DNA of 63,907 bases from Chiloscyllium plagiosum (GCF_004010195.1 NC_057755.1:9676202-9740108), one strand, 5' to 3'; counted from the first letter of the stretch, positions 11,612 through 59,727 are shown. Translations and numbers: made by a program. The notes: generated from the letters alone by a model not told the origin.

Positions 11612-12066
11612 NNNNNNNNNNNNNNNNNNNNNNNNNNNNNNNNNNNNNNNNNNNNNNNNNNNNNNNNNNNNNNNNNNNNNNNNNNNNNNNNNNNNNNNNN
11701 NNNNNNNNNNNNNNNNNNNNNNNNNNNNNNNNNNNNNNNNNNNNNNNNNNNNNNNNNNNNNNNNNNNNNNNNNNNNNNNNNNNNNNNNNNNNNNNNNNNN
11801 NNNNNNNNNNNNNNNNNNNNNNNNNNNNNNNNNNNNNNNNNNNNNNNNNNNNNNNNNNNNNNNNNNNNNNNNNNNNNNNNNNNNNNNNNNNNNNNNNNNN
11901 NNNNNNNNNNNNNNNNNNNNNNNNNNNNNNNNNNNNNNNNNNNNNNNNNNNNNNNNNNNNNNNNNNNNNNNNNNNNNNNNNNNNNNNNNNNNNNNNNNNN
12001 NNNNNNNNNNNNNNNNNNNNNNNNNNNNNNNNNNNNNNNNNNNNNNNNNNNNNNNNNNNNNNNNNN
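11612..12066. other. Assembly gap (455 N)
   Basis: Run of N. Confidence 1.
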
Positions 12067-31700: not shown

Positions 31701-32993
31701 GGATTTATAATCATCTAGAAAAGAATAATTTGATTAGGATTTGTGCAGGGAAGGTCGAGCCTCACAAACCGTATTGAGTTCTTTGGGAAGGTGACCAAAC
31801 AGGTACATGAGAGTAAACCGATTGATGCGGTGTATATCGATTTCGGCAAGGCGTTTGACAAGGTTCCCCACAGTAGACTATTGTACAACATGCGGAAGAA
31901 TGGGATAGTGGGAAGTATAGCAGTTTGGATCAGTAATTGGCTTGCTGAAAGAAGACAGAGGGTGGTGGTTGATGGGAAATATTCATCCTGGAGACCAGTT
32001 ACTAATGGTGTACCGCAAGGGTCGGTGTTGGGTCCACTGCTATTCGTAATTTTTATACACGACCTGGATGAGGGCATAGAAGGTTGGGTTAGTAAATTTG
32101 CAGCTGACACTAATATCGGTGGAGTTGTGGATAGTGACGAAGGATGTTGTAGGTTACAGAGAGACATAGATAAGCTTCAGAGCTGGGCTGAGAGGTGGCA
32201 AATTGAGTTTAATGAGGACAAGTGTGAGGTGATTCACTTTGGTTGGAGTAACCGGAAAGCAAAGTACTGGGCTAATGGTAAGATTCTTGGTAGTGTAGTT
32301 GAGCAGAGAGATCTTGGTGTCCATATACACCGATCCTTGAAAGTTGCCACCCAGGTTGCCAGGGTTGTTAAGAAGGCATACAGTGTTTTAGCTTTTATAA
32401 ATATAGGGATCGAGTTCTGGAACCATGAGGTTATGCTACAGCTGTACAGAACTCTGGTGCAGCCACAATTGGAGCCTTGTGTACAGTTCTGGTCACCGCA
32501 TTGTAAGAAGGATGTGAAAGCTTTGTGAAGGGTGCAGAGGAGATTTACTAAGATGTTGCCTGGTATGGAGGGAAGGTTTTACGAGGAAAGGCTGAGGGAC
32601 TTGAGGCTGTTTTCGTTAGAGAGAAGAAGGTTGAGAGGTGACTTAATAGACACATATAAGATAAGCAGAGGGTTAGATAGGGTGGACAGGGAGAGCCTTT
32701 TACCAAGTATGGTGATGACGAGCACGACGGGGCATAACTTTAAATTGAGGGCTGATAGATATAGGACATATGTCAGAGATAGTTTCTTTACTCAGAGAGT
32801 AGGAAGGGTATGGAATGCTTTGCCTGCAATGATAGTAGATTCGCCAACTTTAAGGACATTTGAGTCAACATTGGACAAGCATATGGACGTATATGAAATA
32901 GTGTAGGTTAGATGGGTTTCAGATTGGTATGACAGGTCGGCACAACACCGAGGGCCGAAGGTCCTGTACTGCGTTGTAATGTTCTATGTTCTA
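28715..32993 (+). mobile_element. Near full-length CR1/HER1 LINE (ORF1 Zn-finger + SGNH esterase; ORF2 APE endonuclease + RT), inactivated
   Basis: ORF1 CSSSRMWE..YICGRCTQLQLLENRVRELE, VVVHIGTNDIG; ORF2 GDFNFPNIDW, TLDLIL, SPGPDG, DFGKAFDKVPH, GVPQGSVLGP, FAADT; tail (GTTCTAT)n; frameshifts and stops. Confidence 0.93.
31016..31103 (-). mobile_element. Short Penelope-type hammerhead element inserted in CR1 ORF2
   Basis: CTGATGA A GGGC GTTT GCCC GAAA CGTC; interrupts CR1 at TACAAGTTAG|CCAGG. Confidence 0.85.
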
Positions 32994-37260: not shown

Positions 37261-38778
37261 GTCATAGGCCTCCAGTCTGAAAAACAACGTTCCACCACCA
37301 CCCTCTGTCTTCTACCTGTGTGCCAGTTCTGTATCCAAATGTCTAATTCTGCCTGTATTCCATGAGATCTAACATTGCTAATCAGTCTTCCACGGGGAAC
37401 CTTGTCGAACGCCTTACAGAAGTCCATATACTGTGACCAGTGGAATGCCACAAAGATCGGTGCTGGGTCCTCTACTTTTTGACATTTACATAAATGATTT
37501 GGTTGCGAGCATAAGAGGTAGAGTTAGTAAGTTTGCAGATGACACCAAAATTGGAGGTGTAGTGGACAGTGAAGAGGGCTACCTGAGATTACAACAGGAT
37601 CTGGACCAGATGGGCCAATGGGTTGAGAAGTGGCAGATGGAGTTTAATTCAGATAAATGCGAGGTGCTGCATTTTGGGAAAGCAAATCTTAGCAGGACTT
37701 ATACATTTAATGGGAAGGTCCTAGGGAGTGTTGCTGAACAAAGAGACCTTGGAGTGCAGGTTCATAGCTCCTTGAAAGTGGAGTCGCAGATAGATAGGAT
37801 AGTGAAGAAGGCATTAGGTATGCTTTCCTTTATTTGTCAGAGTATTGAGTACAAGATTTGTGAGGTCATGTTGCGGTTGTACAGGACATTGGTTAGGCCA
37901 CTGTTGGAATATTGCGTGCAATGCTGGTCTCCTTCCTATCGGAAAGATGTTGTGAAATTTGAAAGGGTTCAGAAATGGGCGGCACGGTAGCACAGTGGTT
38001 AGCACTGCTGCTTCACAGCGCCAGAGACCCGGGTTCAATTCCCGCCTCAGGCGACTCTCTGTGTGGAGTTTGCACATTCTCCCCGTGTCCGCGTGGATTT
38101 CCTCCGGGTGCTCCGGATTCCTCCCACAATCCAAAAATGTGCAGGGGTTAGGTGAATTGGCCATGCTAAATTGCCCGTAGTGTTTGGTGAAGGGGTAAAT
38201 GTAGGAGAATGGGTCTGGGTCGGTTACGCTTCGGCGGGTCGGTGTGGACTTGTTGGGCCGAAGGGCCTGTTTCCACACTGTAAGTAATCTAATCTAAAAC
38301 AAATGATTTACAAGGATGTGGCCAGGGTTGGAGGATTTGAGCTACAGGGAGAGGCTGAACAGGCTGGGGCTGTTTTCCCTGGAGCGTCAGAGGCTGAGGG
38401 GGTGACCTTATAGTAGTTTACAAAATTATGAGAGGCATGGATAGGATAAATAGACAAAGTCTTTTCCCTGGGTTCGGAGAGTCCCGAACTAGAGAGCATA
38501 GATTTACGGTGAGAGGGGAAAGATATAAAAGAGACCTAAGGGGCAACCTTTTCACACAGAGGGTGGTACTTGCATGGAATGAGCTGCCAGAGGAAGTGGT
38601 GATGGCTGGTACAATTGCAACATTTAAGAGGCATTTGGATGGGTATATGAATAGGAAGGGTTTAGATGGATATGGGCTGGGTGCTGGTAGGTGGGACGAG
38701 ATTGGGTTGGGATATCTGGTCGGCATGAAGGGGTTGGACCGAAGGGTCTGTTTCCATGCTTTACATCTCTATGACTCT
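37261..38778 (+). mobile_element. CR1/HER1 LINE 3' part with inverted 5' segment (37261-37431)
   Basis: Forward part TSGMPQRSVLGP..FADDTK..tail CTCTATGACTCTA; minus part YMDFCKAFDKVPRGRL...FSDWRPMT. Confidence 0.9.
37977..38297 (+). mobile_element. Young full-length HE1 SINE inserted in CR1
   Basis: GGGCGGCACGGTAGCACAGTGGTTAGC...GGTTCAATTCC...tail TAATCTAATCTAA; CR1 frame resumes after it. Confidence 0.95.
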
Positions 38779-43683: not shown

Positions 43684-44056
43684 ATGGCCAACATGGAAGT
43701 AGCGAATAAATCAGACTCTACACACAAGGATGGAGTCTGGAAGAAGCAGAGAGAGCCGTTTGCCACCGGAACTGATAAAGATCTTTGTTGTTTTCGGCGA
43801 TTGTTCAGTTGCCTCTGTTGTCAGTCCCGAAGCATGGATTTGAGAGAAAACGCGTCACTTGTAGCAGTGGAAGACGTCAGTCCCCATTACTGTCTCTCCA
43901 ACCCTGCCTTCACGACTTACCCTCACGATTCCCGTACTGAGGATCATCAAACACCCAGGGTGACCTCACCAATGATGCCGGACATGACAGATTCGGAAGA
44001 TGCAGAGCCACAAGAGGTCAAGCAGGATCAGGCATCGGCTAACGAAGGAAGCACAG
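43684..44056 (+). CDS. NLR-like gene, first coding exon (124 aa, Cys-rich motif, no recognisable CARD/PYD)
   Basis: ATG in good context (AGAATGG); open non-repetitive frame; donor CAG|GTAGAA in phase 1 matches the phase-1 acceptor at 55570. Confidence 0.65.
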
Positions 44057-44323
44057 GTAGAAAGGATTTTGTTAAAATTGAGAAGGTACAGAAACGATTC
44101 ACATGGGTCTGGCCGGGAATATCCTTTTATTTCCATATTTCCATTCAAGGCCAATCTGGCTCACATTGCTATCGTGCATTGTAAAATATCACAATGCGAG
44201 GCCATAGATTGTAGGGCCAAAGGGGAAAAAGTTAAAAGGGACCGAAGAGGGAAATTTCTCGCGCAGAGTTTGGTGCATGTGCAGAATGAGCAGCCAGAGG
44301 AAGTGGTGGAGGTTGGTACAATG

Positions 44324-44531
44324 TTGAAACTTTATTGCTGGAACAGCACAGCAGGTCAGGCAGCATCCAGGGAACAGGAGATTCGACGTTTCGGGCACAG
44401 GCCCTTCTTCAGGAACCTGTGCCCGAAACGTCGAATCTCCTGTTCCCTGGATGCTGCCTGACCTGCTGTGCTGTTCCAGCAATAAAGTTTCAACTTTGAT
44501 CTCCAGCATCTGCAGACCTCACTTTCTCCTC
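44324..44531. mobile_element. Young foldback Penelope-type element (79-bp perfect inverted arms) with 15-bp TSD
   Basis: Arms 44323-44401 and 44416-44494; TSD GAGGTTGGTACAATG at 44309-44323 and 44532-44546. Confidence 0.92.
44380..44417 (-). ncRNA. Minimal type I hammerhead ribozyme motif, intact
   Basis: GGTTC-CTGAAGA-A-GGGC(CTGT)GCCC-GAAA-CGTC^GAATC: 5-bp stem I (one G-U), 4-bp stem II. Confidence 0.75.
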
Positions 44532-45899
44532 GAGGTTGGTACAATGACAACATTGTAAAGGTATCAAGATGGGTATATGAATAGGAAGGGTTTAGATGGA
44601 TATGGGTCAAGTGCTTGCAAATAGCACTCGATTAATTTAGCATATCTGGTCGGCCTGGTCGATTTGAGCAGAAGGGTCTATTTCAGTGCTGTGCTGGACT
44701 CTCTGGCTTGAGTGTAAAACAAAGTCTGTTTATTTTCTCTTCTGCTGATTGGCTCTCACCCAGAAACTGAGCCTGACGTTGTCCTGTACATTTCTTGTTA
44801 CTACTATCCTAACAGTTCTCACTGTGTGAAACTGAAGAACAGTTATACTGGAATTATTGACCTATTCATCTCCTGATGCTACCTGGCTCCGTGTGATCTT
44901 CCAGCCTCCTGTTTGTTTACTGTCTGAAAGTGAAGGCATGTCATTTGTCACCTAGCATTGAAAGCTATATGAATTAAGAATTACATATAACACAGAAAAA
45001 TTGGAGACTAATTTACTTCGTCATTGGTTTGTTATTTCAGCATAAAGAAATGCAAATTGACAACAACTGTTTATGTAATCTGCATGCAGTATGTTTTTAT
45101 CTTCAAACTATTATTTGAGTATAATTATGGCTTACCAAGGTGATCCAGTAAATGGATTTAATTTTAAACAGCCAACATGTGAACATTCCATGTACATACT
45201 GAGGCCTCAATTATGTTGTCCTCAAATGTATGTACATATCGCCTTGTGGTTAGACTCCATTTACAACTCACTGGCTATAATAGAGAACTACCTGAATTAC
45301 ACTACAGACCAACCAGATCACAGGGCTACTGTCTCATTGGAGAGAAAGTTGATGTTCACCAGGCCTCTGCCAAGGAGTGATGTTGAGAATTAATGCATTT
45401 TTGTGGTTACCTCAGCTGATGCAGGAATTGAACCCTCACTGTTGGTCTCATTTCACATCGTCAGCCAGTTGTCTAAACTATCCGCACCCCTGAATCAGTC
45501 ACAGCCCACCTCACAAAAAGCACAAATCATTAGATTACAAAGCAGCAGATATTCCCTCGAGAGAGCCCAAAAGTTTACCATCTCCTATCTCGGCATCATC
45601 GTCCAGTCATGCGCTCACGACCAGCCAGCACTCTCTGTGAACTTGCCTTGCCAAGACATCATTATCAAAACAAGCATAATTGAAGGCATTAGCAAGGGAA
45701 ACCCATCATTATGAAACCTGATACTAACAGCTGGCGTGAGACTTTTCTTAGGATACACTCAAAAACTGAAAGTAGACCGGACTGGGGAAGAGCCCAATAA
45801 TACAAAATAAAAACAACCTCTTCTATCCTCAATGAGTATCCACCTACGTCACAAGTTTTAATGAACCGTTTCAGTACAGGGTGCAAAATTGCAAAGCAA

Positions 45900-46205
45900 G
45901 GTGACACTCTGGTTCAATGGTTAGCACTGCTGTCTCACAGCACCTGGAACCTGGATTCGATTCCAACCTTGGGTGACTGGCTGTGTACAGTTTGCATGTT
46001 CTCCCTGTGTGTGTATGTTTTCTTTGGGTGCTCCGGGTTTCTCCCACAATCTAAACGTGTGCAGTTTTGGGTGGATTGGCCATGGTGACAATGAATGTGA
46101 AGCCAAGGTCAGTTAGTGGTGGGTCTGGATGAGATGCTCCTTGGAGGTTCAGTGAGGACTCGATGGGCTGAATGCCTTCCTTGCACAGCGTAGGAATTCT
46201 GTGAT
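45900..46205 (+). mobile_element. Degenerate HE1 SINE
   Basis: TGGTTCAATGGTTAGCACTGCTGTCTCACAGC...GGATTCGATTCC. Confidence 0.85.
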
Positions 46206-46938
46206 AATATTCAGTCTGATTCATTCCCCAACACTGATAACTGTTTAAACTTACCCACACGTTGTATGCAATGGGAACGTGATGGTCTCATGGAATTATC
46301 GCTGGAATATTAACGCAGAGACAAAGTTCATGGGGGTCCATGGTCACATCCAACTTTGATTTTTTTTTAAGAAGCCTGGAATTAAGAGACTAATGACCAT
46401 AAATCCGTTGTTGATTGTTGGCAGAAATCACTCGGGTGCACTGAGGTCCATTCAGGAAGTAAGCTGCTATCTTACCTGTGGCTACACGTGACTCCAGACC
46501 CACAGGAATGTGGTTGACCCTTAACTGCCCCCTGCGATGAGCATTAAATCCTGGTCTAACCAGCAATGCAAAATTCTGTGAACGACTAGGATATATAATC
46601 ACATATGAAGTTGATTGAGAAGTCATTCTCCAATTTGATTTAAGGCTATGTTTAATGTTTTGTTTGTTCTCCCACCCTGACTTTTGCAACTGAACACATG
46701 CGACATTAATGTGTATTCAGTAGAAGCAGGAGCAGCAGACATTTCCTCAGAATGGGCACAATGGTTACCATTTCCCATTTGATTACCATCATCCAGACAT
46801 ACACCGATAACCAGCCAGCGCTCTCTGTGCATTTGCCTTACCGAGACATTTACGAAACAAGCATAATTGAAGGCATAGGCTAGAGAAATGGATTATTGTG
46901 AAGCCTGTTATTAACAGCTGATGTGTTACTTTTCTTAG

Positions 46939-46995
46939 GCTGCACTCAAGAACTGGAGGTAGACCACACTGGGAAAGAGCCTAATCATCCAGAAG
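46939..46995 (+). CDS. Putative 57-bp symmetrical (phase 1-1) exon of the NLR-like gene, GC donor
   Basis: TTACTTTTCTTAG|GC TGC ACT...CCA GAA G|GCAAGT; encodes (G)CTQELEVDHTGKEPNHPE in frame with the flanking exons. Confidence 0.5.
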
Positions 46996-47246
46996 GCAAG
47001 TAACCTGCGTAATCCACAAATTTAATAACTATCCCTTCAAAAGTTGCAATGCACTGTTCCAGTACAAGGCATTTGAAACTCTCCGCAGTATTAACAATGA
47101 AGAGAAAATAGAAATTCCAACTCATCTCCATTCTGTGTGGTATCACAAATTGGTATCATATACACCAATCACCTTCATTTATTTTTGCACAGGACACAGG
47201 CTGTGAAGTGCCAACTCGGAATCAATCCTCCACAACTTCGAAGTCC

Positions 47247-47640
47247 AACACAGTGTAGAAACAGGGCCTGCGGCCCAACAAGCCTACATTGACTTTCTGA
47301 AGAGTAACCCATGCAGACCCATTCCGCTACTCCATTATCCCCCGAACAATGCAACTCACCTACACAATCCCGACCAACATGGCAATTCAGCATGGGCAGT
47401 TCACCTAACCTAGGCCAAAGTGAGGACTGCAGATGCTGGAGAATAGAGTCAAGGTTATAGTGGTGCTGGAAAAGCACAGATCAGGCAGCATCCAAACAGC
47501 AAGAAAATTGATGTTTCAGGCAAAAGCAAAAGCCCTTCATTGTCGATTTTCCTGCTCCTCGGATGCTGCCTGACCTGCTGTGCTTTTCCAGCACCAAATC
47601 TAATATTGACACCAATCTCCAGCATCTGCAGTACCCACTT
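47247..47640. mobile_element. Partial HE1 SINE (minus, ~47247-47415) abutting a decayed foldback Penelope-type element (~47416-47640)
   Basis: AAAGTGAGGACTGCAGATGCTGGAGA ... TCTCCAGCATCTGCAGTACCCACTT inverted arms. Confidence 0.8.
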
Positions 47641-48269
47641 CTGACTCACGACCGAACTGCCCCAGGCCAGTTTCTTCCAGGCTGGTTGTCGACCACTCAG
47701 TTCCCAGTTGCCCCGCGTACTAACTGGATCACCCTCGGCCACTTTCCTATGAGCAGGTTGTCAATCATTTGGTCTCCGGTCGCCGTGTACTTGCTGTACT
47801 CCCCAGGCCCCCTTTTTCTTCCAGGCCAGGTATCGGCCTCCCGGTTCCCAGACACCCTGCACACTAACTAAACCACCCTCTGGCCTATTTCCTACACAAG
47901 GGCGGTCTGCCTTCCAGCTCCGGGCCACACCATGTAGTCGTGACACTTTTACCTGGTCGCATTCTGACGGACCAGCCATCGATTGTCCAGTTACCAGCCT
48001 TCCTGCATAATTACTGGTCCTCTCCCGGTCGACCTTCCTACGGGCTGCTATCGGCTACCTTCCTCAGCCTCCCCCCTTGCCTGTGAGCACAGTATCAGTT
48101 GCCTGACTTTAACTGCCCCTGTACTGACAGTCTCTTTCTGGACAGCTTTCCTCCAAATTTGTCATCAACCCTGCGGCCTCAAGCTAGATAGTATACTGGC
48201 TGCTCTACCCAGACCAGCTTTCCTATGGGATAACTGTTGGCTACCTGGCCCCAGTCACCCCGTGTGTTA

Positions 48270-48590
48270 GATTAGATTAGATTACATTACATTACAGTGT
48301 GGAAACAGGCCCTTCGGGCCAACAAGTCCACACCGACCCGCCGAAGCGAATCCCACCCATACCCCTACATTTACCCCTTACCTAACACTACGGGCAATTT
48401 AGCATGGCCAATTCACCTGAGCCTGCACATCTTTGGACTGTGGGAGGAAACCGGAGCACCCGGAGGAAACCCACGCAGACACGGGGAGAACGTGCAAACT
48501 CCACACAGTCAGTCGCCTGAGGCGGGAATTGAACCCGGGTCTCAGGCGCTGTGAGGCAACAGTGCTAACCACTATGCCACCGTGCCGCCC
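48270..48590 (-). mobile_element. Young full-length HE1 SINE, probable 7-bp TSD
   Basis: Reverse complement of the 37977-38297 family; TGTGTTA at 48263-48269 and 48593-48599. Confidence 0.95.
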
Positions 48591-48849
48591 ACTGTGTTAA
48601 ACAGACCTCCCGCCAATCTGCTTCACCAAGCCTGTCGTTGACTTTCCAGCCCCTGGCCACCCCACGTATTGACTAGCCCACTGTGGCCCGCATCCCTCTG
48701 GGTCAAATATCGGCTCCTCAACCTCTGGATAACCCCGCGTATTAACTGGCCGTGAGCCAGACTTCTAGTGCATGGGTCGGCTGAGGGCTATTGAGCACCT
48801 AAACCCTCACAATCCCCAACTGGCCTACTAACATCTAGCTATCCAATGC

Positions 48850-51800
48850 CCAAATGTAGAGTACACTTCAGCAGGCAGAGCCCACACCAAAACGCAGAGT
48901 CCACTCCAACAGGCATCAAATGCTCACTTCCCAGCGTCCATACAGGGCTTCAAAACTTTGCAGAGGACTCGTCCACCTCTAGAGGCCCAAATCTACTCAC
49001 AGAGGAAGGGTTTATCTGGAAAGATGCAGTTGACTCAATGGCTTATTCCAAACACCAAAAAGTGAATGTACAAGCAAAAAAAACACAAGGAAGTGAAATT
49101 ACAGAAAAACAGCGTGCAAGGGCTAAACTCGACCACAAAATTAGTGTAGTTCTTTCCTCAAAATAAATCAGAGTGCCACACGGTCTGTAACCAGCCAGTT
49201 AAACAACATTTCCCTCATGAGAACTGAAATACATTTGTAACACACTGACTGTAAAGATCAGCCATCTCAGGAATCAGTTTTAATAAAGGAACAACAGGAA
49301 AACGCATAGTGTGAAAATCAGCTATTTCAGGAATTAGTTCCCCAACAACAAAAACAAACCAACTGCAGCACACGTGGGCTATATGGCCAGCCAACTCGGA
49401 GTCAGTCCCCCTGAACTGACTAGGGTTGAATTCTCCATCTTATGTTATTTTCAGCCAGTTGTCAAGTGAGGAGCATCTAATCTATTTTTATTTGCTAAAA
49501 AAACAACAAAGCAATAAAACAACAACAGCAGTTCACAAAAAAAACTAATTACAGGGAGGATGCAGCAAGGCCAAACACTGCTCTGTGAACAGGGAAAGGA
49601 GGGAAATCCTCAAATCCCAACTTCAGTCATCAAAAAAAAAGAAAACTAAAGTAAAAACACAGAGAAGACAGTTCAATCCAATGAAAAAACAATGCATAGA
49701 ACATTATACCCCGCAGCAACCCAGCAAGCCACAGATCCCTCCCACCTTTTAGCCCCTCAAAGTTACCCTCCCATATGCTCCTTCCAGTTCTCAGTTGCTC
49801 CAAGTGCTTTCTGGCTTCTGAATCCATCCTTGTGCACCTTCCGGCCTGTGCACTGCTCTGACATTCCAGCCACCTGTAGAACAGGCCGCCCCCCTCCCTG
49901 AGGTGACAGCGCACAGGGAAGCCCACACGCCTTCTGACTCTGAGTCACCCCAACACACTTTCCAGCCACCTCTAGGGCCGCTGTCCCACCCTTTCCTCGG
50001 GACGACAGTGCTCAGGATGACCTACACACTTTCCAGCTGTCGTGGCAACCAACATCAGAATGGCCTCCTCACCTTCTGGTTCACAGGACGGACTACCCAC
50101 CCTGCGGCTCTCGGGGTCACAGCTTTCGAGACGAGCTATGGGCCTCCCAGCTCATGGTAAAGCCTGCCTGACCCAGGGACACACAAGACCTTTTTTTGCT
50201 GCTATGCAGAGTCCATTGGCAGACAGAATCCACAACCAAAGGCAGAATCCACTCCAGTATGCACTGTCCACTCCTGATGGTAGCAAATTCATACCCAACA
50301 ACACATACAGGTGTTTAGTCTCCACAGAGGCCTGATACATCCACAGAGGACGAGGCCCACTCACTGAAATACATGTCATTGTAAAGGTGCAGTTAATTCA
50401 TAGGTACTCAGTCCACTCCAGCAAATGCTAACCTCCCAGCATAGAGTGTTTAGAGGCCTAGTCCATGCACAGAGGTCCAGGCCTAACTACAGAGGAACAT
50501 TATATCTGGGAAAATGCAGCTGACACACACGGGCTCAGTCCAAACACCAAAACGTGAAAATACATGCAAAGAAAAAGTGCAGACAATAAAAAACAGAGTT
50601 TAAGGGCTAAGCCCTGCCACAAAAGCAGCAGAGTCCTTTTTTTTTTCAAAATAAAAAGAGGCTGTAACTATCCAGTGAAATAATAGTTTCCTAATAAGAG
50701 CTGAAATGCACCTGTAGCACATCGGCACAGTCAGTCAGTCAGCCAGCCAGTTTAGCAATCAGATCCCCAAAATCAAAACCAACAACAGTACACACTGACT
50801 GTGCCATCCAGTTCATTGTCAGTCAGTTGTCAACTGAGGAGAATCTAATCTCCTGTTCTTTTAATTTTATGAAACGGTTAAAAAAGGACAATCATTTCAC
50901 AATAAACAAGTAGCAGTTCACAAAAAACATCACTCTTTACAAGGGAACGGGCAGCAAGACCATAACCTATACCTCATCATTTAATTAGTTAACAGGGAAA
51001 TGAGGGCGAACTTCAAATCCCATCAGCCATCAAAAAGGAAACAGCATCAAACACTGACAAGACAGTCCAATCCAATGAAAAACAGTACATAGACCACAGA
51101 CCCCAACAACCCCGACCCCTCCCTATTCTGCCCACTCGAAGGTAGCCCACCCTACTTGCCTTCTGGCTGTTAACCCGTGCCCCTTCTGGATTCCCAATTC
51201 ACCTCTACACACCATCTGGTTCTTACCCACCTCGATGTGTCATTTACCCTGTGGACTGCCACCACCTGGTCACCTTTAGGACAGCCAACCTCACCCTTTT
51301 CTCGATACAAAAGCGCTCAGGACCACTTGCCAACCTTTCAGCTCTCGGGGCGGCCAGAATCAGGATGCCTACCCACCTTCCAGCTATTGGGACAGCCTGC
51401 TCACCTTCCTGTTCACAGGATGGCTCTTCACCTGCCAGCAGTCGGGATGATCTATGAACCTGCCAAAATAGGCCTGCCAGAGAAAGGGACACCAAAACAG
51501 TGCAGGTGATAAAACCAAAAAGCTAAAAAAAAGCAGTCAATTACCAAATTCCGAGTCCCCTCTGGTATGCAGAGTCCATTACCAACCACAAGAGTTCACT
51601 TCAGAATGCAGAGTCAATTAACAGTAACAGACTCCACTGCAATATGCAGAGTCCATTGCCAGAAAGAGAGTCCACAAACAAAGGCAGAGCCCATTCCTGA
51701 AGGTTGCAAATGCACACGCCACAACACACATGCAGGTGCTCCGTTTCCGTGGAGACCTGGTCCATTCACAGAGGACTAGGCCCGCTCACATTAATGCAGT

Positions 51801-54560
51801 CCATTACAAATTGTGCCCACTCCAAACAATCAGGGTCCACTCCAGGATGCAGCAAATGCTGTCCATCCAGCACACACACACCTATTCAGTCTTTACCGAT
51901 GCCTAGTCTAAGAACAGAGGACCAGGCCTCTCTACAACACAACAGTTCATCTGGAAAGGTGAATTATCTAACAGGGGCTTAGTCTGAACACCTAAACAAG
52001 TGAAAATACGCAAAAACCAGAGTGCAAGGGCTAAGCCCTGCTACAAAATCATTATGGAATTTCTCAAGGTAAAGGAAAAGAGTAACACAGGCTGGAAACC
52101 ATCGTAAAATAACAGTTCCGTAATGCGAATTGAATTACACCTGTAACACATTTACTCTTCAGGTCAGCCAGTATAGAACTCAGTCCTCACTTAAAAAAGG
52201 AATACCAGTTAACAAACTGGACAGGTAGACCAGCCAATTCAGGAATAGTGTCCCCCAAAACAGAAGCCAACAACAGTACCCACTGGCTGTAGCCAGACAT
52301 CGTGAAGTCAATACCCCTGCACTGAAGTGATTCTAAATCTCCATAGAATACTTTTTTCTGAGTCAGTTGTCAACTGAGGACAATCTAATCTTTTGTTTTT
52401 AGATGTAAACTTGTTTTAATATTTTGGTAAACAATAAGTTAACCATGAAAAGCAGTTTATAAGAAATAGCAATTTACAGGGCAGGACAGCAAAGCCAAAC
52501 ACGCAAACCCCATCATACACAGGGAAAAGAGAAAGAACCTCAAATCCCATTTTATTATGTCAAAAATGTAAAAGCAATCACATACAGACAATCCAATAAG
52601 CCGAACAATAAAACAGAGCATATATCACAGACACCCCTGTCAACCCAAGCAAACTACCCATCCCTTCCACCTTCCAGCCACTCAAAGGCAGCCCACGCCT
52701 TTGCTTTCTGGATCTTGGTCTGGCCCATGTCCCTTCTGGCTCTTGGGCCACCGTGACACACCATCCAGCCACCTCTAGGGCAGCCTCTCTTGTTTCACCA
52801 CCTGTCCCCCCCCCCTCCCCCATTTCAGTACAGCAACGATCAAGACGGTCTATCCACCTTCCATCTTCTCTAACCACCCTCCCAGCCACCTCAAAGGCAG
52901 CCCACTCGAGTACCTGCCTGGTGTGAGGGCACTAAGGTTGGATAATACCCCTTCCAGCTCTTTGTCTTCCCATGCATACTATTTGGCTTTCATCCACACT
53001 GACGTGCCATCCAGCCTGTGGACTGCCCTGACACACCTTTATTCCAACTCGAGGGCAGCCCATTCCTTTTCTTCGGACAACAGCACGTAGGACAGCCAAC
53101 AAGGCTTCCGGATATCAGTTGCCCCTATGCGCCTTCTGGCTGTTGGCTGCTCTGACATACCTTCCAGCCACCTCTAGGTCAACCCGTCCCAAACACCCCT
53201 TCTTCGGGACGACAGTATTTGGAACAGCCTACTCACCCTCTAGCTCTTGGGGCGACCAGCACCGGGGTGGCTTACCCACCTTCCGCTTTGGGGGCAGCCT
53301 ACTAACCTTCCAGTGCACAAGACTGTCAACTCACCCTCTGACTCTCGGGTTTACAGCTTTCTGGATAACATATAAGCCTCCGAGCTCAGAACAAAGCCTG
53401 GCAGGCACAGGGGCACACAAGACAGTGCAGGTAATAATTCCAGCAAGCAACAAGACAGAGCTAATTAGCAGCAAGCGGAATCCCTTCTGGTACAAAAAGC
53501 CCATTACGATACACCGTTCCCTTCAGAATGCAGGATTCATTCACAGGAACAAACTACACTGCAGAATGTAGAGTGCATTGTCAGAGATAGAATACAGAAC
53601 AAAAGGCAGAATCCACTCAAGTGGACAGAGTCCACTCCAGAAGCAAATGCGCACTCCACAGCACAAAGGAGTTCAGTCTCCATAGAGTCCTGGCTGATCA
53701 ATAGAGAACGAGGCCCACTCACAGGAACACAGTACATTGTAAAGGTGCAGTTAACTCATCTTTACAGGTTTCGTTCACTCCCAAGGCAGAGTCAACTCCC
53801 AAACTCCAGGATACAGCAAGTGCTCACCTCCCAGCACACACACAGATGTTCAGTTTGCAGAGGCCTTGTCCAAGGATCAAGCCTACCCACAAGAACAGCT
53901 CATCTGGTCAGATGTATTTTCTCATAAGGGCTCAGTCCAAACACCAAAACGTGGTGAAGACATATTCAAAAAACAAAGAAAACTAGTGTCCAAGGGCTAC
54001 ACCCTGCCACAAAATCAACATTGTCCTTTTCTCAAAGTAAAAGAGTAACACGCAAACTGTAACGAGCCGGTAAAACAACAATTCTGTAATGAGAACTGAG
54101 TTACTTCTGAAACACATTGATTGCGTGGATCAGGCAGTTTAGATATCAGTCCTCAATAATAAAGAAAAAGAATAGCAGTTAACAAAATTGGCTTTGTAAA
54201 CCAGCCAGCTCAGGAATCAGGTTTCCTCCAAAACAGCGGTGACACACTGACTGCAGCACCAGCCAGCACAGAGTCAGTCCCTTGAACTGAGGGGATTCTA
54301 ATCTATTGGTTATATTTTGTTTCTCTCGTTATTTTTTTCCCCTTTTTCTTTTTTCTTTCGTTTTCTGTTGCCCAGCCAGCACAGAGACAGTCCCCTAAAC
54401 TGAGGAGAATGTAAACCTCCTAGTTATCTCTCCAGCCAAGGCTTTCCTGATTGTCTCAGGTTAACAGTAAACACTGACTGTGACCCAGCCACAACAGAGT
54501 CAGTCCCCTAATCTAAGGAGTTTCCACGTATTCTGGTTATATCTATCAGCCAAGGACTTC
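48850..54560. repeat. Diverged tandem array, 3-4 units of ~1.45-1.95 kb, origin unknown
   Basis: Marker GGCTCAGTCCAAACACCAAAACGTG-like at ~49041, 50531, 51975, 53929; AAGGGCTAAGCCCTGCCACAAAA-like at ~49118, 50602, 52026, 53992. Confidence 0.85.
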
Positions 54561-55109
54561 CCGACGAGCACAAGTTAACAACCTGAAACAAGGAGCTGGT
54601 AGTCAATAAGATCAACCTGGTTCCAATCGCTAAACTGTTTAAATTCAGTCACGGGATCTGTCCATCACTAGCCAGGCCTGCATTTAATGTCCATCCCAGA
54701 AGGCAGTTAAGACTCAGCCATATTGCTGTGGGTCCGGAGTCACATTTGGCCAGACCAGGAAAAGACAGCAGTTTCCTCTTCCAATGAACATGGGTGAAAC
54801 AGATGGGCTGTTCCTGATATTTGACAGTGGATTTCAGATTTTCGCTGAATTAAAATTCCACTATTTTCAGTTTTTGTGCCTTTGTCCAGAGAATATTAAC
54901 TGGGTCTCTTGATTAACAGCAATAATCTCTCTGGGCCATCCCTCTCTAATAGTGAGTAGAGAGTCAAAAATCATTAGGACTACCAAAAGCGATCATATAA
55001 ACGTTTATCAGAAAGGCAATTTACTTATTACATCATTGTGGCTTTTGCATTTCAATCTCCAAATCGACAGCTGTTAAAGCTCTCTACAGAGTTACACAGT
55101 ACATAGACC

Positions 55110-55490
55110 TTGTGACAGAGTGGTAGTGTCCTATCTCTGAGCAAGGAGAACCTGGATCGATTCCCGTTTGCTGCAGGCAGTTTGATATAACACATTTGAG
55201 TGCGCTGATTATTGAGAAAATGTGTGCAGCATACAAATCTAGAGCCTTCGTGGTAGAGTCCCAAGCTTTGAATCAGGAGGTGTGAGTTGGAGTTCCTCTT
55301 GCTCCTGAACTGTGTAATAACATTACTGAACAGCTTGATATCTGATAAGCTGATGGGGTTCTGATTGTCCTACTGAGGTAGAAAGCTTTTATGTCGCAGT
55401 GGTGGTGTCCTTTCCTCTGAGCCGAGAGAGCTGGGTTATAGTTCTTTTGCTTCGGTCGTGCATAACAACATTTCTGATCAGGGTATGATA
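55110..55490 (+). repeat. Three tandem decayed tRNA-like SINE heads (~130-145 bp period); related copy on minus strand at ~43420-43500
   Basis: GTGGTAGTGTCC..CTCTGAGC...TAACA..TCTGA repeated at ~55119, 55249, 55399. Confidence 0.6.
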
Positions 55491-55569
55491 AGGAAACTGT
55501 ATAGGATGTAAATCTGGATAATAGAGAGAAATGTTGACAATAATACAAAAATGTTATTGTGATTCCTAG

Positions 55570-56617
55570 ATCCCAATTTGCAGCAACAGCAGGAACAGCT
55601 CCAGGAAACCAGCCCGACATCCCACAATGACAAGAGTCTCCAGGAATTCACTGGGCATGAGAGACGGGAATATTTCGGGGAGTATTCCCGAAGGGCAGAG
55701 CCTGGGGCAGATGCTCCTGGACACACGGAGGAGAGTCGAGATCCCTCCTGCTTGTGTTCTAACCTTTCTCACTGTGAGAGCGCCCTCTCCTCTCTTGGCT
55801 TCTTGCTCACACCTCAGTACGCCTCTGAGGGTAGTTCCCCAATGACGTTCACCCACTTCCTAACCAATCATGTCTTCAGGCCATTCATTGGTCAGGAAAA
55901 GAACTGCGTCCCACTTTTGCAGAAACTCTGTAAATTGGCCTACGAAGGACTTCATCGGGAGACCTCTGTCCTTCAAGAACCTTCCCGCCACCAGAGGCTC
56001 AGTCGATTGCAATTTCGATCCCACATCCCGGCTGAGATCTTGGAAAGGGAAGAATCTGCTAGCGGGGTCATGTATAGATTCCCCCACCCACTAGTACAAG
56101 GTTTCCTGGCGGCAGTGGATCAATTCCTGACCGCTGACCCCAGCAGTCTCCTCGTCGTCCTGGAGAGACATTCTGAAGGGAGAGATGCACGGTCCAGAGC
56201 ATTTCGGCAATGCCTCTTTGGTCTTTGCTCTCCCCCTCTATCCCGGCTGCTGGGCGAGCTCCTGGGTCCTGCCCCGCGTGAAACAATTAGTAGGTTAACA
56301 GCATTTTTGGAGTCGAGGGTCCGAGCGGGAATACAGAGCGTGAACCGTGAGCCAAACACAGCAGAGCTGCTGCAGACCCTGTGCGATATCTATGAAGCTC
56401 AGGACGAAGAGCTAGCCAAGAGGACAGTGGGTTCCGCCAAACAGCTGGCATTTGGAGGGTGGAACCCTGTAAAGCTGAGCCATATGGATTGTGTGGCTAT
56501 CGCCATCGTGTTACAGCTGTGTCCCTCAGTGGAAGACCTCAACCTCAATAGCTGTCACATTGGAGATGAAGGATTGTGTTGCTTAGTCCCTGTCCTCCAT
56601 CGGTGTAAAGTGCTGAG
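55570..56617 (+). CDS. NLR-like gene, large exon: HD1, winged-helix, HD2 and first LRR; NACHT P-loop core absent
   Basis: Acceptor TGATTCCTAG|AT; EFTGHERREYF, LQKLCKLAYEGL, YRFPHPLVQGFLAA, LLQTLCDIYEAQD, LSHMDCVAIAIVL, LNLNSCHIGDEGL; donor GAG|GTATAG phase 2. Confidence 0.92.
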
Positions 56618-56689
56618 GTATAGTGAACTGGTATCATTTCACAGATGGTGACACCAGAAGGGAGGGAGGGATAGATATTACTAAATCAC

Positions 56690-57330
56690 ACACTGCAGAT
56701 AGGACCTGTCGGCCTATCTATTCTATACCACCGAAACTATACGACTACTGACACTAATCCCACACTCCTGCACTGATGTTGATCGATCTGACATTTCAAG
56801 TGCTTGTAAGGTGTAAGATCTCCCACCTCTACTCCCCTCCCAGGCAGTGCATTCCAAACCCGCGGGATGATTTGATTGCCCTCAAATCCCGTCCAACCAT
56901 TCCTGCCTTTAGTTGCCTCACCACCTCGACTCTTTGATGAAAGGAAATGGCTGCCTCTTACCCACTGTTTCTGTACCCCTGATGATCGTACACACCTGCC
57001 ATCAGAATCCTCCCCACTCTGCTCCAACCTGAGCTTATCCCAGCCTCCCCCTTCACTCCCTCACCATCGTCCAAAGGCTCCATCCCAGAGTAACATTCTG
57101 GTGAATCTCCCTCTGCATCCCATCCAGTACAGTCCCCTCTTCCCTCTTGCGCGGGGTTCAGGAACCACACACTGGACTCCAGCTGTGACCTGAAGTATAG
57201 TCTTTTTGCAGCTTCAACATCAGCTCCACGCCCTTACTGTCTGTACCACGACTGATAAAAGTTTGTGTTCCATGTGGCTTCTTATCACACTTTTAACCTA
57301 TCGTGTCCACCCTCAGGGATGTGTGGACAG
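56690..57330 (-). mobile_element. Degenerate CR1 3' fragment in NLR intron
   Basis: RVWNALPGRGVEVGDL on the minus strand. Confidence 0.7.
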
Positions 57331-57500
57331 GCGTCCAGTTTTGGGTGGGGCTGCGGTGGGGATGGCGGTGGAGAAATACCGCAGAATTGGTCAAGTGTCA
57401 AAGTGATACCTGGCACTTGATACCTGTTGCATCGAGATATGGTGATTTTTTTTATGATGGGTATTAATTAAATAATCGTCTCTTTCTATTGAACCTGCAG

Positions 57501-57587
57501 GCTAAACCAGAACAAGTTGAGTGATGCGTCTTCTGAAGGATTGTTTACTGCACTGACCAGGACAGAATGCAAAGTACATACCCTGGA
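57501..57587 (+). CDS. NLR-like gene, 87-bp LRR exon
   Basis: CTGCAG|G; LNQNKLSDASSEGLFTALTRTECKVHTLE; GA|GTAAGG; phase 2-2. Confidence 0.92.
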
Positions 57588-57744
57588 GTAAGGATATCTG
57601 ATCGAAACTAGATACTATGGAATTTCTCAATGGGAATCTGCAAAATGTCCTGGGGTCCCAGGTTCAAATCCTAGTCGATGGTGACATTTGCAATGAAATG
57701 ACAGAATTAAGATGTTAACAATGACAGTGTTGATATATAGAATT

Positions 57745-58492
57745 GCAACAAAAGGCCATTCGGCCAATGGGTCCGCACTGACCCACCGAACAGCATCCCA
57801 CCGACTCCCTCCACCTTATCCATAACACCTAGTGTTTCCTATGGCTGACACACAAACCCTGCACATCCCTGGACACTATGGGAAAATATAGAATGGCCAA
57901 ATCACCCTCGCCTACACACAACTAGGCACTATGGTACAATTTTACACGGCCAATCCAGCCTAACTGACACGTCCTTGGTCAATGTGGGAATATGTAACAC
58001 GGCCAATCCAACCTAATCTGCACATCCCTAGACACTATGGGACTATTTAGCATTGCCAAACAACTTGAACCTTCACATCCCTGGACACGATTGGGACAGT
58101 TTAACACGGTCAATGCATCCTGATCTGCACATCCCTGGGTACAATGGGACAATTTAACGTGACCAATCCACCCTAAGCTGCACATCCCAGAACACTACTG
58201 GACAATTTAACACTGTGAATCCACCCTAACCTACACATTCCGTTGAAGCTAGTGGACAACTTATCATATCCAATCATCCTCACCTGTACATCCCTGGGTA
58301 CTTGGAACAATTTAGCATGGCCACTCCAACCTAACCTGTACATCTTTGGACTGGGTGTGAAAACCAGACCAGATGGAAGAAACCTACGCAGACACTGGTA
58401 GAACGAGAAAATTCCACACAGACAGTCGCCTGAGAGTGGAATTGACCCCGGGTCACTGGCATTATCATACAGGAGTGTTAACCCCTGAACCA
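57745..58492 (-). mobile_element. HE1 SINE with 9-10 diverged internal ~53-bp tandem units
   Basis: Units start at ~57843, 57895, 57948, 58001, 58054, 58108, 58161, 58213, 58268, 58319; SINE head at ~58490. Confidence 0.88.
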
Positions 58493-58674
58493 TTCATTAT
58501 TAAAAACATCTGGTTCACTCATTTTACCGGTTTATGAAGAGTGCCGGTGGATGATGTGCGTTTAAAATGAAGTTTGCTCTTAAATAGGTACAACTGACTA
58601 TGTCGATGTAGGCCTGGCAAGATATTAATATATGTCTTCAGATAATTCATGGAGTGTGTGCTGGACTCTTGCAG

Positions 58675-58845
58675 GTTGTGGGGTAACCATTTGACTGACG
58701 TGTTTGCTGAACACTTTAAGTCAGCGCTCCATGTAAACCGCACGCTAGAAGTATTGGTTTTAAGTCACAACAGTCTGGGTGATTTGGGAGCCAGAGGATT
58801 GACAGCTGCCCTCATGGATCCTGGCTGCAAAATCAAAATATTGAG
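58675..58845 (+). CDS. NLR-like gene, 171-bp two-LRR exon
   Basis: TTGCAG|G; LWGNHLTDVFAEHFKSALHVNRTLEVLVLSHNSLGDLGARGLTAALMDPGCKIKILR; AG|GTACGT; the usual size of RI-type NLR LRR exons. Confidence 0.95.
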
Positions 58846-58899
58846 GTACGTGAATGCTGAACTCACCTCAGTAACAACCGACAACCATATTACCGTGGC

Positions 58900-59135
58900 G
58901 TGGAGAAGTAGAAGTTAAAATAGGGTCTGCCAGCTAGATCTCATAGCATGCGGGTTTCCTAATTGTGGGTGTTAATCCGGTCCAATCAGGGAGCACTGGC
59001 TGACATATCGTAAGTGTGAGTGTCAGTGATACTGACACCCTAGGACCTGAATCTTAATGAGGCAAGTCTAAAGTCATGAATTGTTCATGTAGAAATAAAG
59101 GGAGACTTGGGCTAATGGCCTCTAAGAATTATGTG
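58900..59135 (+). mobile_element. Probable short solo-LTR-like repeat
   Basis: CCAAT box (GGTCCAATCAGGGAGC), then AATAAAGGG near the end; resembles a common shark repeat (from recall). Confidence 0.35.
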
Positions 59136-59228
59136 AGAAACAATTTCCACTGTAGAATGGGTTAATTACATTTTAAGTTAGGAATAGCAATCCCTTAAAT
59201 TATTCTGTGGCTCTGTCACATTCTGCAG

Positions 59229-59396
59229 ATTGGATTGCAACGACCTAACTGACCACTGTGTGCAGGACATTGCTTTTTCCGTTGGTTTCAACTGGTCTTT
59301 GGAGGGGTTGGATTTGGACAGCAATTATTTCAGTGATACATCCATCCCTTCATTCATAAGTCTCATAAAAAAGAACACAGGATTGAAGTGGATCAG
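59229..59396 (+). CDS. NLR-like gene, 168-bp two-LRR exon
   Basis: CTGCAG|A; LDCNDLTDHCVQDIAFSVGFNWSLEGLDLDSNYFSDTSIPSFISLIKKNTGLKWIR; CAG|GTCGGT. Confidence 0.93.
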
Positions 59397-59639
59397 GTCG
59401 GTACCCAATCAGACTCTCATCATTATTCTGCGAGATCTTTATTTGTTGCTGACATCATTATGAAGGAATGCATCTGTGACAACTGAGCAAATTGTGTTAT
59501 TGGGCGATCACAGATACTTAAATGAAGTGTTTCAGCTCGATCATTTGCCTTAATAGCTCTGTGTTATATTATACAGTTCATTTCAATCTCTCTTTGTTTC
59601 GTTCCAACTTTACATTCAATGTTAACTTTCTCTTTACAG

Positions 59640-59727
59640 GTTGGCTGGTAACAAGTTTTCGTTATTTGGCAAAACCCAACTGGGGTCATTGCAACTATAC
59701 AGAAAAGGCTGTGAAGTGTGGGTGTGA
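59640..59727 (+). CDS. NLR-like gene, terminal coding exon
   Basis: CTTTCTCTTTACAG|G; LAGNKFSLFGKTQLGSLQLYRKGCEVWV*; TGA at 59725-59727. Confidence 0.9.

Follow-up and report, generated by a model that had tools for sequence, protein, structure and literature searches.

An apparent loss of the nucleotide-binding domain from a shark NLR gene

NLRs are defined by a nucleotide-driven switch. What, then, is to be made of a gene that carries the C-terminal half of an NLR in an open frame and has no switch? The question is raised by a seven-exon gene on the plus strand, at positions 43684-59727 of a 63,907-nucleotide stretch of the Chiloscyllium plagiosum genome (GCF_004010195.1 NC_057755.1:9676202-9740108; the whole of this stretch is called the window below). 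An earlier reading of the DNA, made without database searches and called here the sequence-only reading, took the gene to be intact, supposed that an in-frame deletion within the large exon had removed the nucleotide-binding domain (NBD) with its NACHT core, and suggested that selection maintains what is left, perhaps as a dominant-negative decoy, ligand sink or scaffold. I conclude that the gene is very probably just that, a selected NLR derivative without an NBD. The best explanation of the case as a whole goes a step further, to an NBD-less and effector-less NLR descendant that acts as a nucleotide-independent binder or regulator, and this I rate at about an even chance.

The gene model itself is precise. 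A search of exon boundaries over the AG/GT(GC) combinations around the tblastn matches gave exactly one solution that translates to the 663-amino-acid protein P0153 (RefSeq XP_043539114.1/XP_043539115.1, 'NACHT, LRR and PYD domains-containing protein 3-like [Chiloscyllium plagiosum]'), with which the window product is identical letter for letter. The coding sequence comes to 1992 nt with its stop, and the gene is present in a single copy in its own genome, where the best paralog is 33% identical.

Domains lost and retained

The case for a missing NBD rests first on a comparison of the window's large exon (exon 3; Table 1) with seven large-exon frames of paralogs from the same genome. All seven paralog exons run from ..QQKHKETLR.QTETL.., the start of FISNA, through Walker A (GVPGIGKT), Walker B (LLFIFDGLDE) and ..VLVTSRP.. 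to ..AEILGFxxxxRKEYF. The window exon begins with DPNLQQQQEQLQET, and SLQEFTGHERREYF follows within some 25 codons, as the sequence-only reading had said; in the alignment LQEFTGHERREYF is reached some ten residues after the DPNLQQQQEQLQET opening. The start of the family exon is kept (QQ..E.L in the window and QQHKE in catshark, as against QQKHKETL in the paralogs), the DNA there is also alike, and the exon resumes, in frame, at the ILGFxxxxRxEYF-type motif that closes the NBD. The net result is an exon 227-242 residues shorter than every one of the seven. Regular-expression patterns for Walker A and Walker B find both motifs in 7/7 paralog exons and neither in the window exon. The supposed in-frame deletion is thus borne out, and alignment to shark paralogues, which had been proposed as the way to map it, places its junction between the exon start and the end-of-NBD motif. 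A single in-frame loss within the large exon appears, from these alignments, to have taken most of FISNA and the whole NBD, including Walker A, Walker B and sensor 1.

Homology to NACHT-bearing NLRs covers exon residues 25-348, and in a library-wide HMMER search the full-length relatives align only from exon residue 23-28 on, at their own positions 400-600, just behind NACHT. The Pfam matches of the 1048-bp exon are to NLRC4_HD2, to part of NOD2_WH and to LRR_6. NLRC4_HD2 (E 6.6e-07 with the exon, 1.6e-06 with P0153) stays below the gathering score in both and rises above it in P0001, P0002 and P0003, three of the orthologues described below; the families of leucine-rich repeats (LRRs) matched across the exon and P0153 scans are LRR_6, LRR_1 and LRR_8. 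NACHT (PF05729) gives no match at E<=1 on the exon and none at E<=0.01 on P0153; the sequence-only reading had expected NOD2_WH, NLRC4_HD2 and LRR_RI in the spliced protein, and no PF05729. When two NACHT-bearing relatives were used as tblastn queries, their FISNA-NACHT parts remained unmatched anywhere in the window at E<=10. The genome as a whole contains 74 NACHT matches, none of them in the window; on the contig, one has to go about 0.36 Mb downstream or about 1.9 Mb upstream to reach the nearest.

It had been claimed further that no Walker A or Walker B motif occurs in any exon or in any listed open reading frame (ORF) of the large intron. The exons indeed have neither, and there is no Walker B anywhere in the window, but the claim needs a correction at one place in the big intron, where a six-frame regular-expression scan of the window found its single Walker-A-like string, GWPGAGKS (minus strand, 48639-48662). 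By a rough estimate, about 0.3 such strings are expected by chance. The 55-residue ORF that holds it has no Pfam family and no tblastn match to the NACHT-bearing relatives, and GWPGAGKS is treated here as a chance occurrence, not as a remnant of the NBD.

What does the exon still encode? Among the features by which an NLR is recognized, NACHT with its Walker motifs is absent, as are PYD and CARD; the HD1-WHD-HD2 modules (helical domain 1, winged-helix domain, helical domain 2) are present, with HD1 degenerate, and so are LRRs of the ribonuclease-inhibitor (RI) type. The structure was predicted by AlphaFold2 on a 22-row alignment of the orthologues, of same-genome paralogs from HD1 to the LRRs, and of relatives short at the N-terminus (predicted template modelling score, pTM, 0.65). 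The WHD-HD2-LRR part is modelled with confidence (predicted local distance difference test, pLDDT, about 70-98, and about 90 over the first strand/helix repeat of the LRRs), the HD1 remnant mostly at pLDDT below 60, and residues 1-207 below 50, where the sole predicted element of the N-terminal tail is a low-confidence helix at 33-44. If the model is a guide, what remains of the NLR is a decayed HD1 followed by a well-folded WHD-HD2-LRR unit with seven to eight LRRs. The best solved structures returned by Foldseek for the model are NOD2, NLRP3 and NLRP1, all at probability 1.00 (5irm, 8ej4, 8swk, 8swf, 8sxn, 7wge). Human and mouse NLRP3, rabbit NOD2 and human NLRP1 also resemble the window protein in the histidine-containing helix of the WHD, which it retains; they differ in having an ADP/ATP-binding NBD and a PYD or CARD, both of which it lacks. 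A complex prediction with two copies of residues 236-663 scored 0.00, which is evidence neither way.

The tail that precedes the large exon is of a different kind. No Pfam family matches exon 1 or residues 1-165 of P0153, and the genome holds no other copy of exon 1 (the next best match has E 0.12). An Atlas search with the tail gave no usable feature match and structural template modelling (TM) scores of 0.26 or less, while a word-indexed search with residues 1-165 returned nothing, a result that is uninformative because the known orthologues were likewise not recovered. The whale-shark and catshark orthologues are collinear with exon 1. In the cysteine-rich helix, C36, L44, C45, R49, S50, D52 and L53 are identical in P0153, P0001 and P0155, the three orthologues with an N-terminus, and Y-C-L-S-N at residues 69-73 is a second conserved island. 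The paralogs and sister proteins share instead a helical N-terminal domain, CARD-like by eye, that has no Pfam match. In place of the usual N-terminal domain of the relatives the window protein has a unique tail, disordered as far as the model can tell.

From what family, then, does the gene come? Its nearest relatives are the shark FISNA-NACHT NLRs, annotated as 'NLRP3-like', 'NLRP6-like' or 'NLRP12-like' (P0005 of Scyliorhinus canicula, P0023 of Pristiophorus japonicus, P0032 of Carcharodon carcharias and the own-genome paralogs). They share with it a large exon followed by short phase-1 LRR exons, a homologous HD1-WHD-HD2-LRR region (29-33% identity, E down to 1e-40) and the type of C-terminal tail, and the window gene nests inside them. 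They differ from it in having FISNA, the NBD and the helical N-terminal domain, whereas the window gene lacks most of the first and all of the other two, has only 7-8 LRRs and evolves faster. On sequence grounds the gene descends from this 'NLRP3-like' family. One could imagine a different origin, by partial capture, in which an unrelated 5' gene acquired the 3' portion of an NLR exon and no internal deletion took place. Exons 1 and 2 indeed have no relative among the NLR genes of the genome, and the 5' match of the big exon is short (the QQ..E.L and QQHKE given above). Against capture, the big exon begins at the family exon start, with motif order and DNA like those of 7/7 paralogs, and homology resumes exactly at the end-of-NBD motif and in the same frame. 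A replaced N-terminus and an internal deletion can, moreover, both hold. Capture instead of deletion is an improbable account.

Age of the loss and constraint on what remains

Is the loss old, and has the remainder been kept? The same collinear layout without NACHT is found in five species besides C. plagiosum: Chiloscyllium punctatum (P0004, 93% identical over the big exon), the whale shark Rhincodon typus (P0001, 713 aa, 62-63% identical overall), the smooth-hound Mustelus asterias (P0156, 607 aa) and the catsharks Scyliorhinus canicula (P0155, 672 aa, and P0002, 616 aa) and Scyliorhinus torazame (P0003). The search of other elasmobranchs for orthologues with the same deletion, which the sequence-only reading had put forward, was therefore productive in two shark orders. 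The NACHT family of Pfam matched 0/6 of the orthologue-group proteins scanned (P0153, P0001, P0002, P0003, P0004 and P0156). Fourteen non-orthologous relatives were scanned as well: 12 have a full NACHT, the match is partial in P0011, and there is none in P0006, a protein whose C-terminal sequence is unrelated. The deletion junction lies at the identical place in the five orthologue sequences aligned, with only indels of 1-3 residues nearby. The orthologue entries carry the precomputed Pfam accessions PF27087 and PF27089. P0156 has a different first segment, without the cysteine-rich helix and the YCLSN island, the result either of a mis-predicted first exon or of a real difference.

A tree of 65 rows was made from the HD1-HD2 region. 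It took in the 6 orthologues, 8 same-genome paralog exons and 51 of the 150 listed representatives, namely those whose matches span nearly the whole query, partial ones being excluded. The six orthologues form one clade (SH-aLRT, the Shimodaira-Hasegawa-like approximate likelihood ratio test, 100) on a long stem of 0.6, nested among NACHT-bearing vertebrate NLRs. Within it, (whale shark,(two bamboo sharks)) stands opposite (smooth-hound,(two catsharks)), a division of carpet from ground sharks that mirrors the species tree and is expected under vertical descent. The sister group, weakly supported (SH-aLRT 80), consists of P0023 (sawshark) and P0032 (white shark), both with NACHT. Given a six-species clade with the topology of the species tree, the NBD was lost once, before Orectolobiformes and Carcharhiniformes split, an event of well over 100 million years ago.

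These facts bear on the suspicion that the absence is an artefact, either of an assembly collapse that removed the NBD or of an annotation that missed a NACHT exon. The 11.5-kb intron is repeat-rich, and beyond that no positive support for an artefact was found. Against it, the gene and its neighbourhood are free of Ns (the only N runs in the window are at 1621-2042, 422 bases, and 11612-12066, 455 bases, both far away), NACHT-like sequence is absent from every frame of the window, and the same junction recurs in the gene models of five other species. The artefact is the least credible of the alternatives.

Would an unconstrained gene have stayed open so long? Substitutions were laid on the coding sequence in a neutral simulation until amino acid identity fell to an observed level, 500 runs per level. 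No copy remained free of stops at 63% identity (0/500, with 12.8 stops on average), and none at 45% (0/500, mean 19.1). The retained domains are constrained to a degree that climbs from the N-terminal to the C-terminal ones: positions invariant across the six orthologues number 8/68 (12%) in HD1, 22/94 (23%) in WHD, 44/116 (38%) in HD2 and 112/218 (51%) in the LRRs. Within the LRRs, the seven LxxLxLxxN windows of the beta face are invariant at 48/63 positions (76%), including 25 of the 35 exposed x positions (71%), compared with 37/87 in the helices of the convex side. In the WHD, none of the 22 aligned sequences departs from F314, H316, F322 and A324, and at the other end of the protein, the C-terminal EVWV is invariant in 5/5 aligned orthologues. 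The motifs linked to nucleotide binding have gone the other way. Where 7/7 paralogs read NPSYCW the window protein reads NLSHCE, and where they read QEF[VI]AA it reads QGFLAA; the drift claimed for these two motifs is real, and HD1 is the least conserved part of the protein.

These results leave little room for a recent or slowly decaying pseudogene that is intact in looks only. Such a view can call upon an HD1 that is poorly conserved and poorly modelled, and upon the fact that the gene is known here from genomic sequence and predicted models alone, a fact that also counts against the conclusion I draw. It must contend with an open frame and intact splice sites, with collinear NACHT-less models in six species of two orders, with 0/500 neutral simulations left open and with exposed LRR positions of which 71% do not vary. 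I consider decay very improbable. The suggestion of selection on a non-ATPase form gains from the same body of evidence: one junction common to six species of two orders, a clade with SH-aLRT 100, no neutral frame left open and graded conservation.

A possible role

If the gene is maintained, what might its product do? Having no P-loop, it should neither bind nor hydrolyse nucleotide, nor form an oligomer driven by an NBD; having no death-fold domain, it should not recruit ASC or caspases. Without nucleotide cycling and without an NBD oligomer, the protein would have to act by binding. I propose that the conserved concave face of the LRRs, together with HD2, may hold a conserved host partner, which might be a cofactor, an activated signalling complex or the LRR of a full-length NLR. 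The near-frozen state of that face would fit a conserved host partner better than it would fast-changing pathogen molecules. The protein would then most probably regulate signalling by full-length NLRs, or compete with it, without signalling itself. That its role is specifically competitive or negative regulation is a tentative proposal, to which I give somewhat less than an even chance. The conserved cysteine-rich helix of the tail may tether the protein to membranes by S-acylation. As a site of S-acylation or membrane contact the helix is a speculative candidate, guessed from its motif.

There is a precedent in plants. Arabidopsis NRG1C keeps only WHD-LRR and, according to PMC12177489, binds activated EDS1-SAG101 more tightly than does full-length NRG1A, which it out-competes for this complex, damping immunity (bioRxiv 10.1101/2021.01.27.428547 also treats NRG1C). 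The likeness lies in a truncated NLR that selection has kept, without the oligomerizing NBD and the signalling N-terminus and with WHD and LRR retained; withdrawal of a partner from full-length paralogs is what I propose, by analogy, for the shark protein. The resemblance is convergent and not one of homology, since NRG1C belongs to the plant NB-ARC lineage, not to NACHT. The two cases differ also in that the window gene lost its NBD by internal deletion, has a new N-terminal tail and is known from its sequence only.

An alternative view is that the gene is conserved for a new job that has nothing to do with damping NLR signalling, whether as an LRR sensor or adaptor working through the novel tail or as a structural or housekeeping LRR protein; ribonuclease inhibitor and the NLRP proteins of oocyte lattices would be examples of the latter form. 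In keeping with this view, the N-terminal exons have no counterpart elsewhere and are conserved in part, NLR clusters are not close by, and the fold matches include NLRPs that are built into oocyte cytoplasmic lattices. Furthermore, when solved structures are searched by sequence, ribonuclease inhibitors come out on top (E 4.5e-30), ahead of the NLRP3 LRR (4.3e-25). The likeness to ribonuclease inhibitor (RNH1) is in the LRR_RI-type repeats. RNH1, however, consists of LRRs only, about 15 of them, whereas the window protein has the NLR-specific WHD and HD2 before its 7-8 repeats, and the retention of WHD-HD2 suggests that contacts typical of NLRs are still in use. In other respects a new job is inseparable from the regulator model. 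I regard it as possible, with a chance somewhat below that of the regulator.

Several considerations weigh against the proposal of a selected, NBD-less regulator. Its binding partner is hypothetical. NRG1C clusters with NRG1A/B, unlike the window gene, which, with its nearest NACHT match some 0.36 Mb off, does not sit beside full-length paralogs. Orthologues from the two shark orders are only 45% identical, and the long stem and long branches make the gene a fast one for a shark. HD1 shows signs of decay, and constraint on that part of the protein is slight. The other five orthologues are computer-predicted models, the check at the level of DNA covering the window gene alone, and the orthologues identified here come from six species of carpet and ground sharks. 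As for acylation, just two cysteines of the motif stay unchanged in a comparison of three sequences.

Literature searches brought up no account of this gene, which exists only in the form of automatic RefSeq models under misleading 'NACHT, LRR and PYD domains-containing' names. The whale-shark genome paper attributes an NLRP-like sequence without detectable NACHT to a high false-negative rate of NACHT detection (PMC8455134). One candidate for such an entry, XP_020376766.1 (Supplementary file 12 of PMC8455134), may correspond to P0001. Were the link true, shark NLR surveys would contain at least one 'NACHT not detected' entry that is real biology and not a failure of detection. It is unlikely, though not far-fetched, that everything holds at once: that the gene is the lone 'NLRP-like without detectable NACHT' entry of the whale shark, in which case the nearest thing that sharks have to the NLRP lineage would be a protein truly without NBD and effector, possibly a membrane-tethered, nucleotide-independent brake on the expanded FISNA-NACHT NLRs or a sink for their partners, kept for much more than 100 million years, and the first vertebrate counterpart of NRG1C. 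Whatever the outcome, a vertebrate NLR descendant that has WHD-HD2-LRR and neither switch nor effector amounts to a natural separation-of-function experiment on the C-terminal half of NLRs, and it offers a testable animal parallel to the 'truncated inhibitor' principle of plant NRG1C.

Gene structure and surroundings

The positions of the exons and domains are collected in Table 1, the limits of the domains having been set by eye from alignments and being approximate.

Table 1. Exons, domains and motifs of the gene, in window coordinates
Feature	Position	Strand	Description
Exon 1	43684-44056	+	373 nt; start codon, residues 1-124; tail unrelated to other NLR N-termini, no PYD/CARD
Cys-rich helix motif	43780-43842	+	Residues ~33-53, D-L-C-C-F-R-R-L-F-S-C-L-C-C-Q-S-R-S-M-D-L
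Exon 2	46939-46995	+	57 nt; residues 125-143; phase 1 on both sides; needed to reproduce P0153
Exon 3 (big exon)	55570-56617	+	1048 nt; exact model
Big-exon start	55570-55640	+	Residues 144-167; apparent FISNA-start remnant, then deletion junction
End-of-NBD motif (..QEFTGHERREYF) and HD1 remnant	55641-55844	+	Residues ~168-235; boundary approximate
Winged-helix domain (WHD)	55845-56126	+	Residues ~236-329; includes conserved F-x-H-x-x-x-Q-x-F-L-A-A helix
HD2 helical domain	56127-56474	+	Residues ~330-445; Pfam NLRC4_HD2 match spans residues 316-427
First LRR, end of big exon	56475-56617	+	Residues 446-493; LRR_6 match
Exon 4	57501-57587	+	87 nt; one LRR; tblastn with P0001-P0003 and P0153
Exon 5	58675-58845	+	171 nt; two LRRs; tblastn; Pfam LRR_6 on enclosing ORF
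Exon 6	59229-59396	+	168 nt; two LRRs; tblastn; equivalent skipped in catshark isoform X2
Exon 7	59640-59727	+	88 nt; last LRR strand, C-terminal ...EVWV, TGA stop; tblastn

Every junction is in phase 1. All introns but one, five in number, are GT-AG; the exception lies downstream of the 57-bp exon and has a GC donor (CAGAAG|gcaagt, 46995/46996). The sequence-only reading gave six exons with a 1935-nt coding sequence and 644 residues, or 663 with the 57-bp exon. The sum is right if the 57-bp exon is left out, but the seven-exon form, with its 663 residues, is the better model, because the whale-shark and catshark models contain a homologue of that exon; in translation the exon runs parallel to the part of the whale-shark sequence that separates exon 1 from the big exon. 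Catshark isoform X2 (P0002) differs from P0155 by a 56-residue LRR block that matches exon 6 of the window, and since all LRR exons are in phase 1, skipping an exon keeps the frame.

Exon 2, together with about 150 bp of flank, has a diverged copy in the same intron, 1.19 kb farther upstream and roughly 79-85% identical (45640-45850 as compared with 46827-47040). The copy keeps its acceptor (ttcttag|G), and having no donor, and a TAA in the frame of the exon, it is evidently a dead pseudo-exon. Just two copies of exon 2 exist genome-wide, which points to local duplication and not to a transposon. Farther on, within the 8.6-kb intron at 46996-55569, three diverged tandem copies (60-80% identical in segments, unit 1.3-1.9 kb) occupy the region from about 49900 to about 53800, which has negative GC skew and positive AT skew.

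The preservation of the gene had also been contrasted with decayed GPCR genes nearby, a contrast that could not be reproduced: 0/225 ORFs of at least 62 residues outside the coding exons matched a 7tm family (38 ORFs were scanned at E<=0.01, 150 at E<=0.001 and 37 at E<=0.01), at thresholds that more decayed remnants would escape. The two N runs of the window are either assembly gaps or withheld stretches. Upstream of the gene lie fragments of retroelements: a weak GDSL-like esterase piece (29447-29815), an endonuclease piece (30345-30608) and reverse-transcriptase pieces (31734-32525 and 37382-37987). On the contig at large (C46, of which the window is 9676202-9740108), 10 of the 74 NACHT matches form a 0.7-Mb cluster at 10.10-10.80 Mb, which begins about 0.36 Mb downstream and includes several matches with internal stops, and further NLR exons occur at 0.4-4.2 Mb and at 7.8 Mb.

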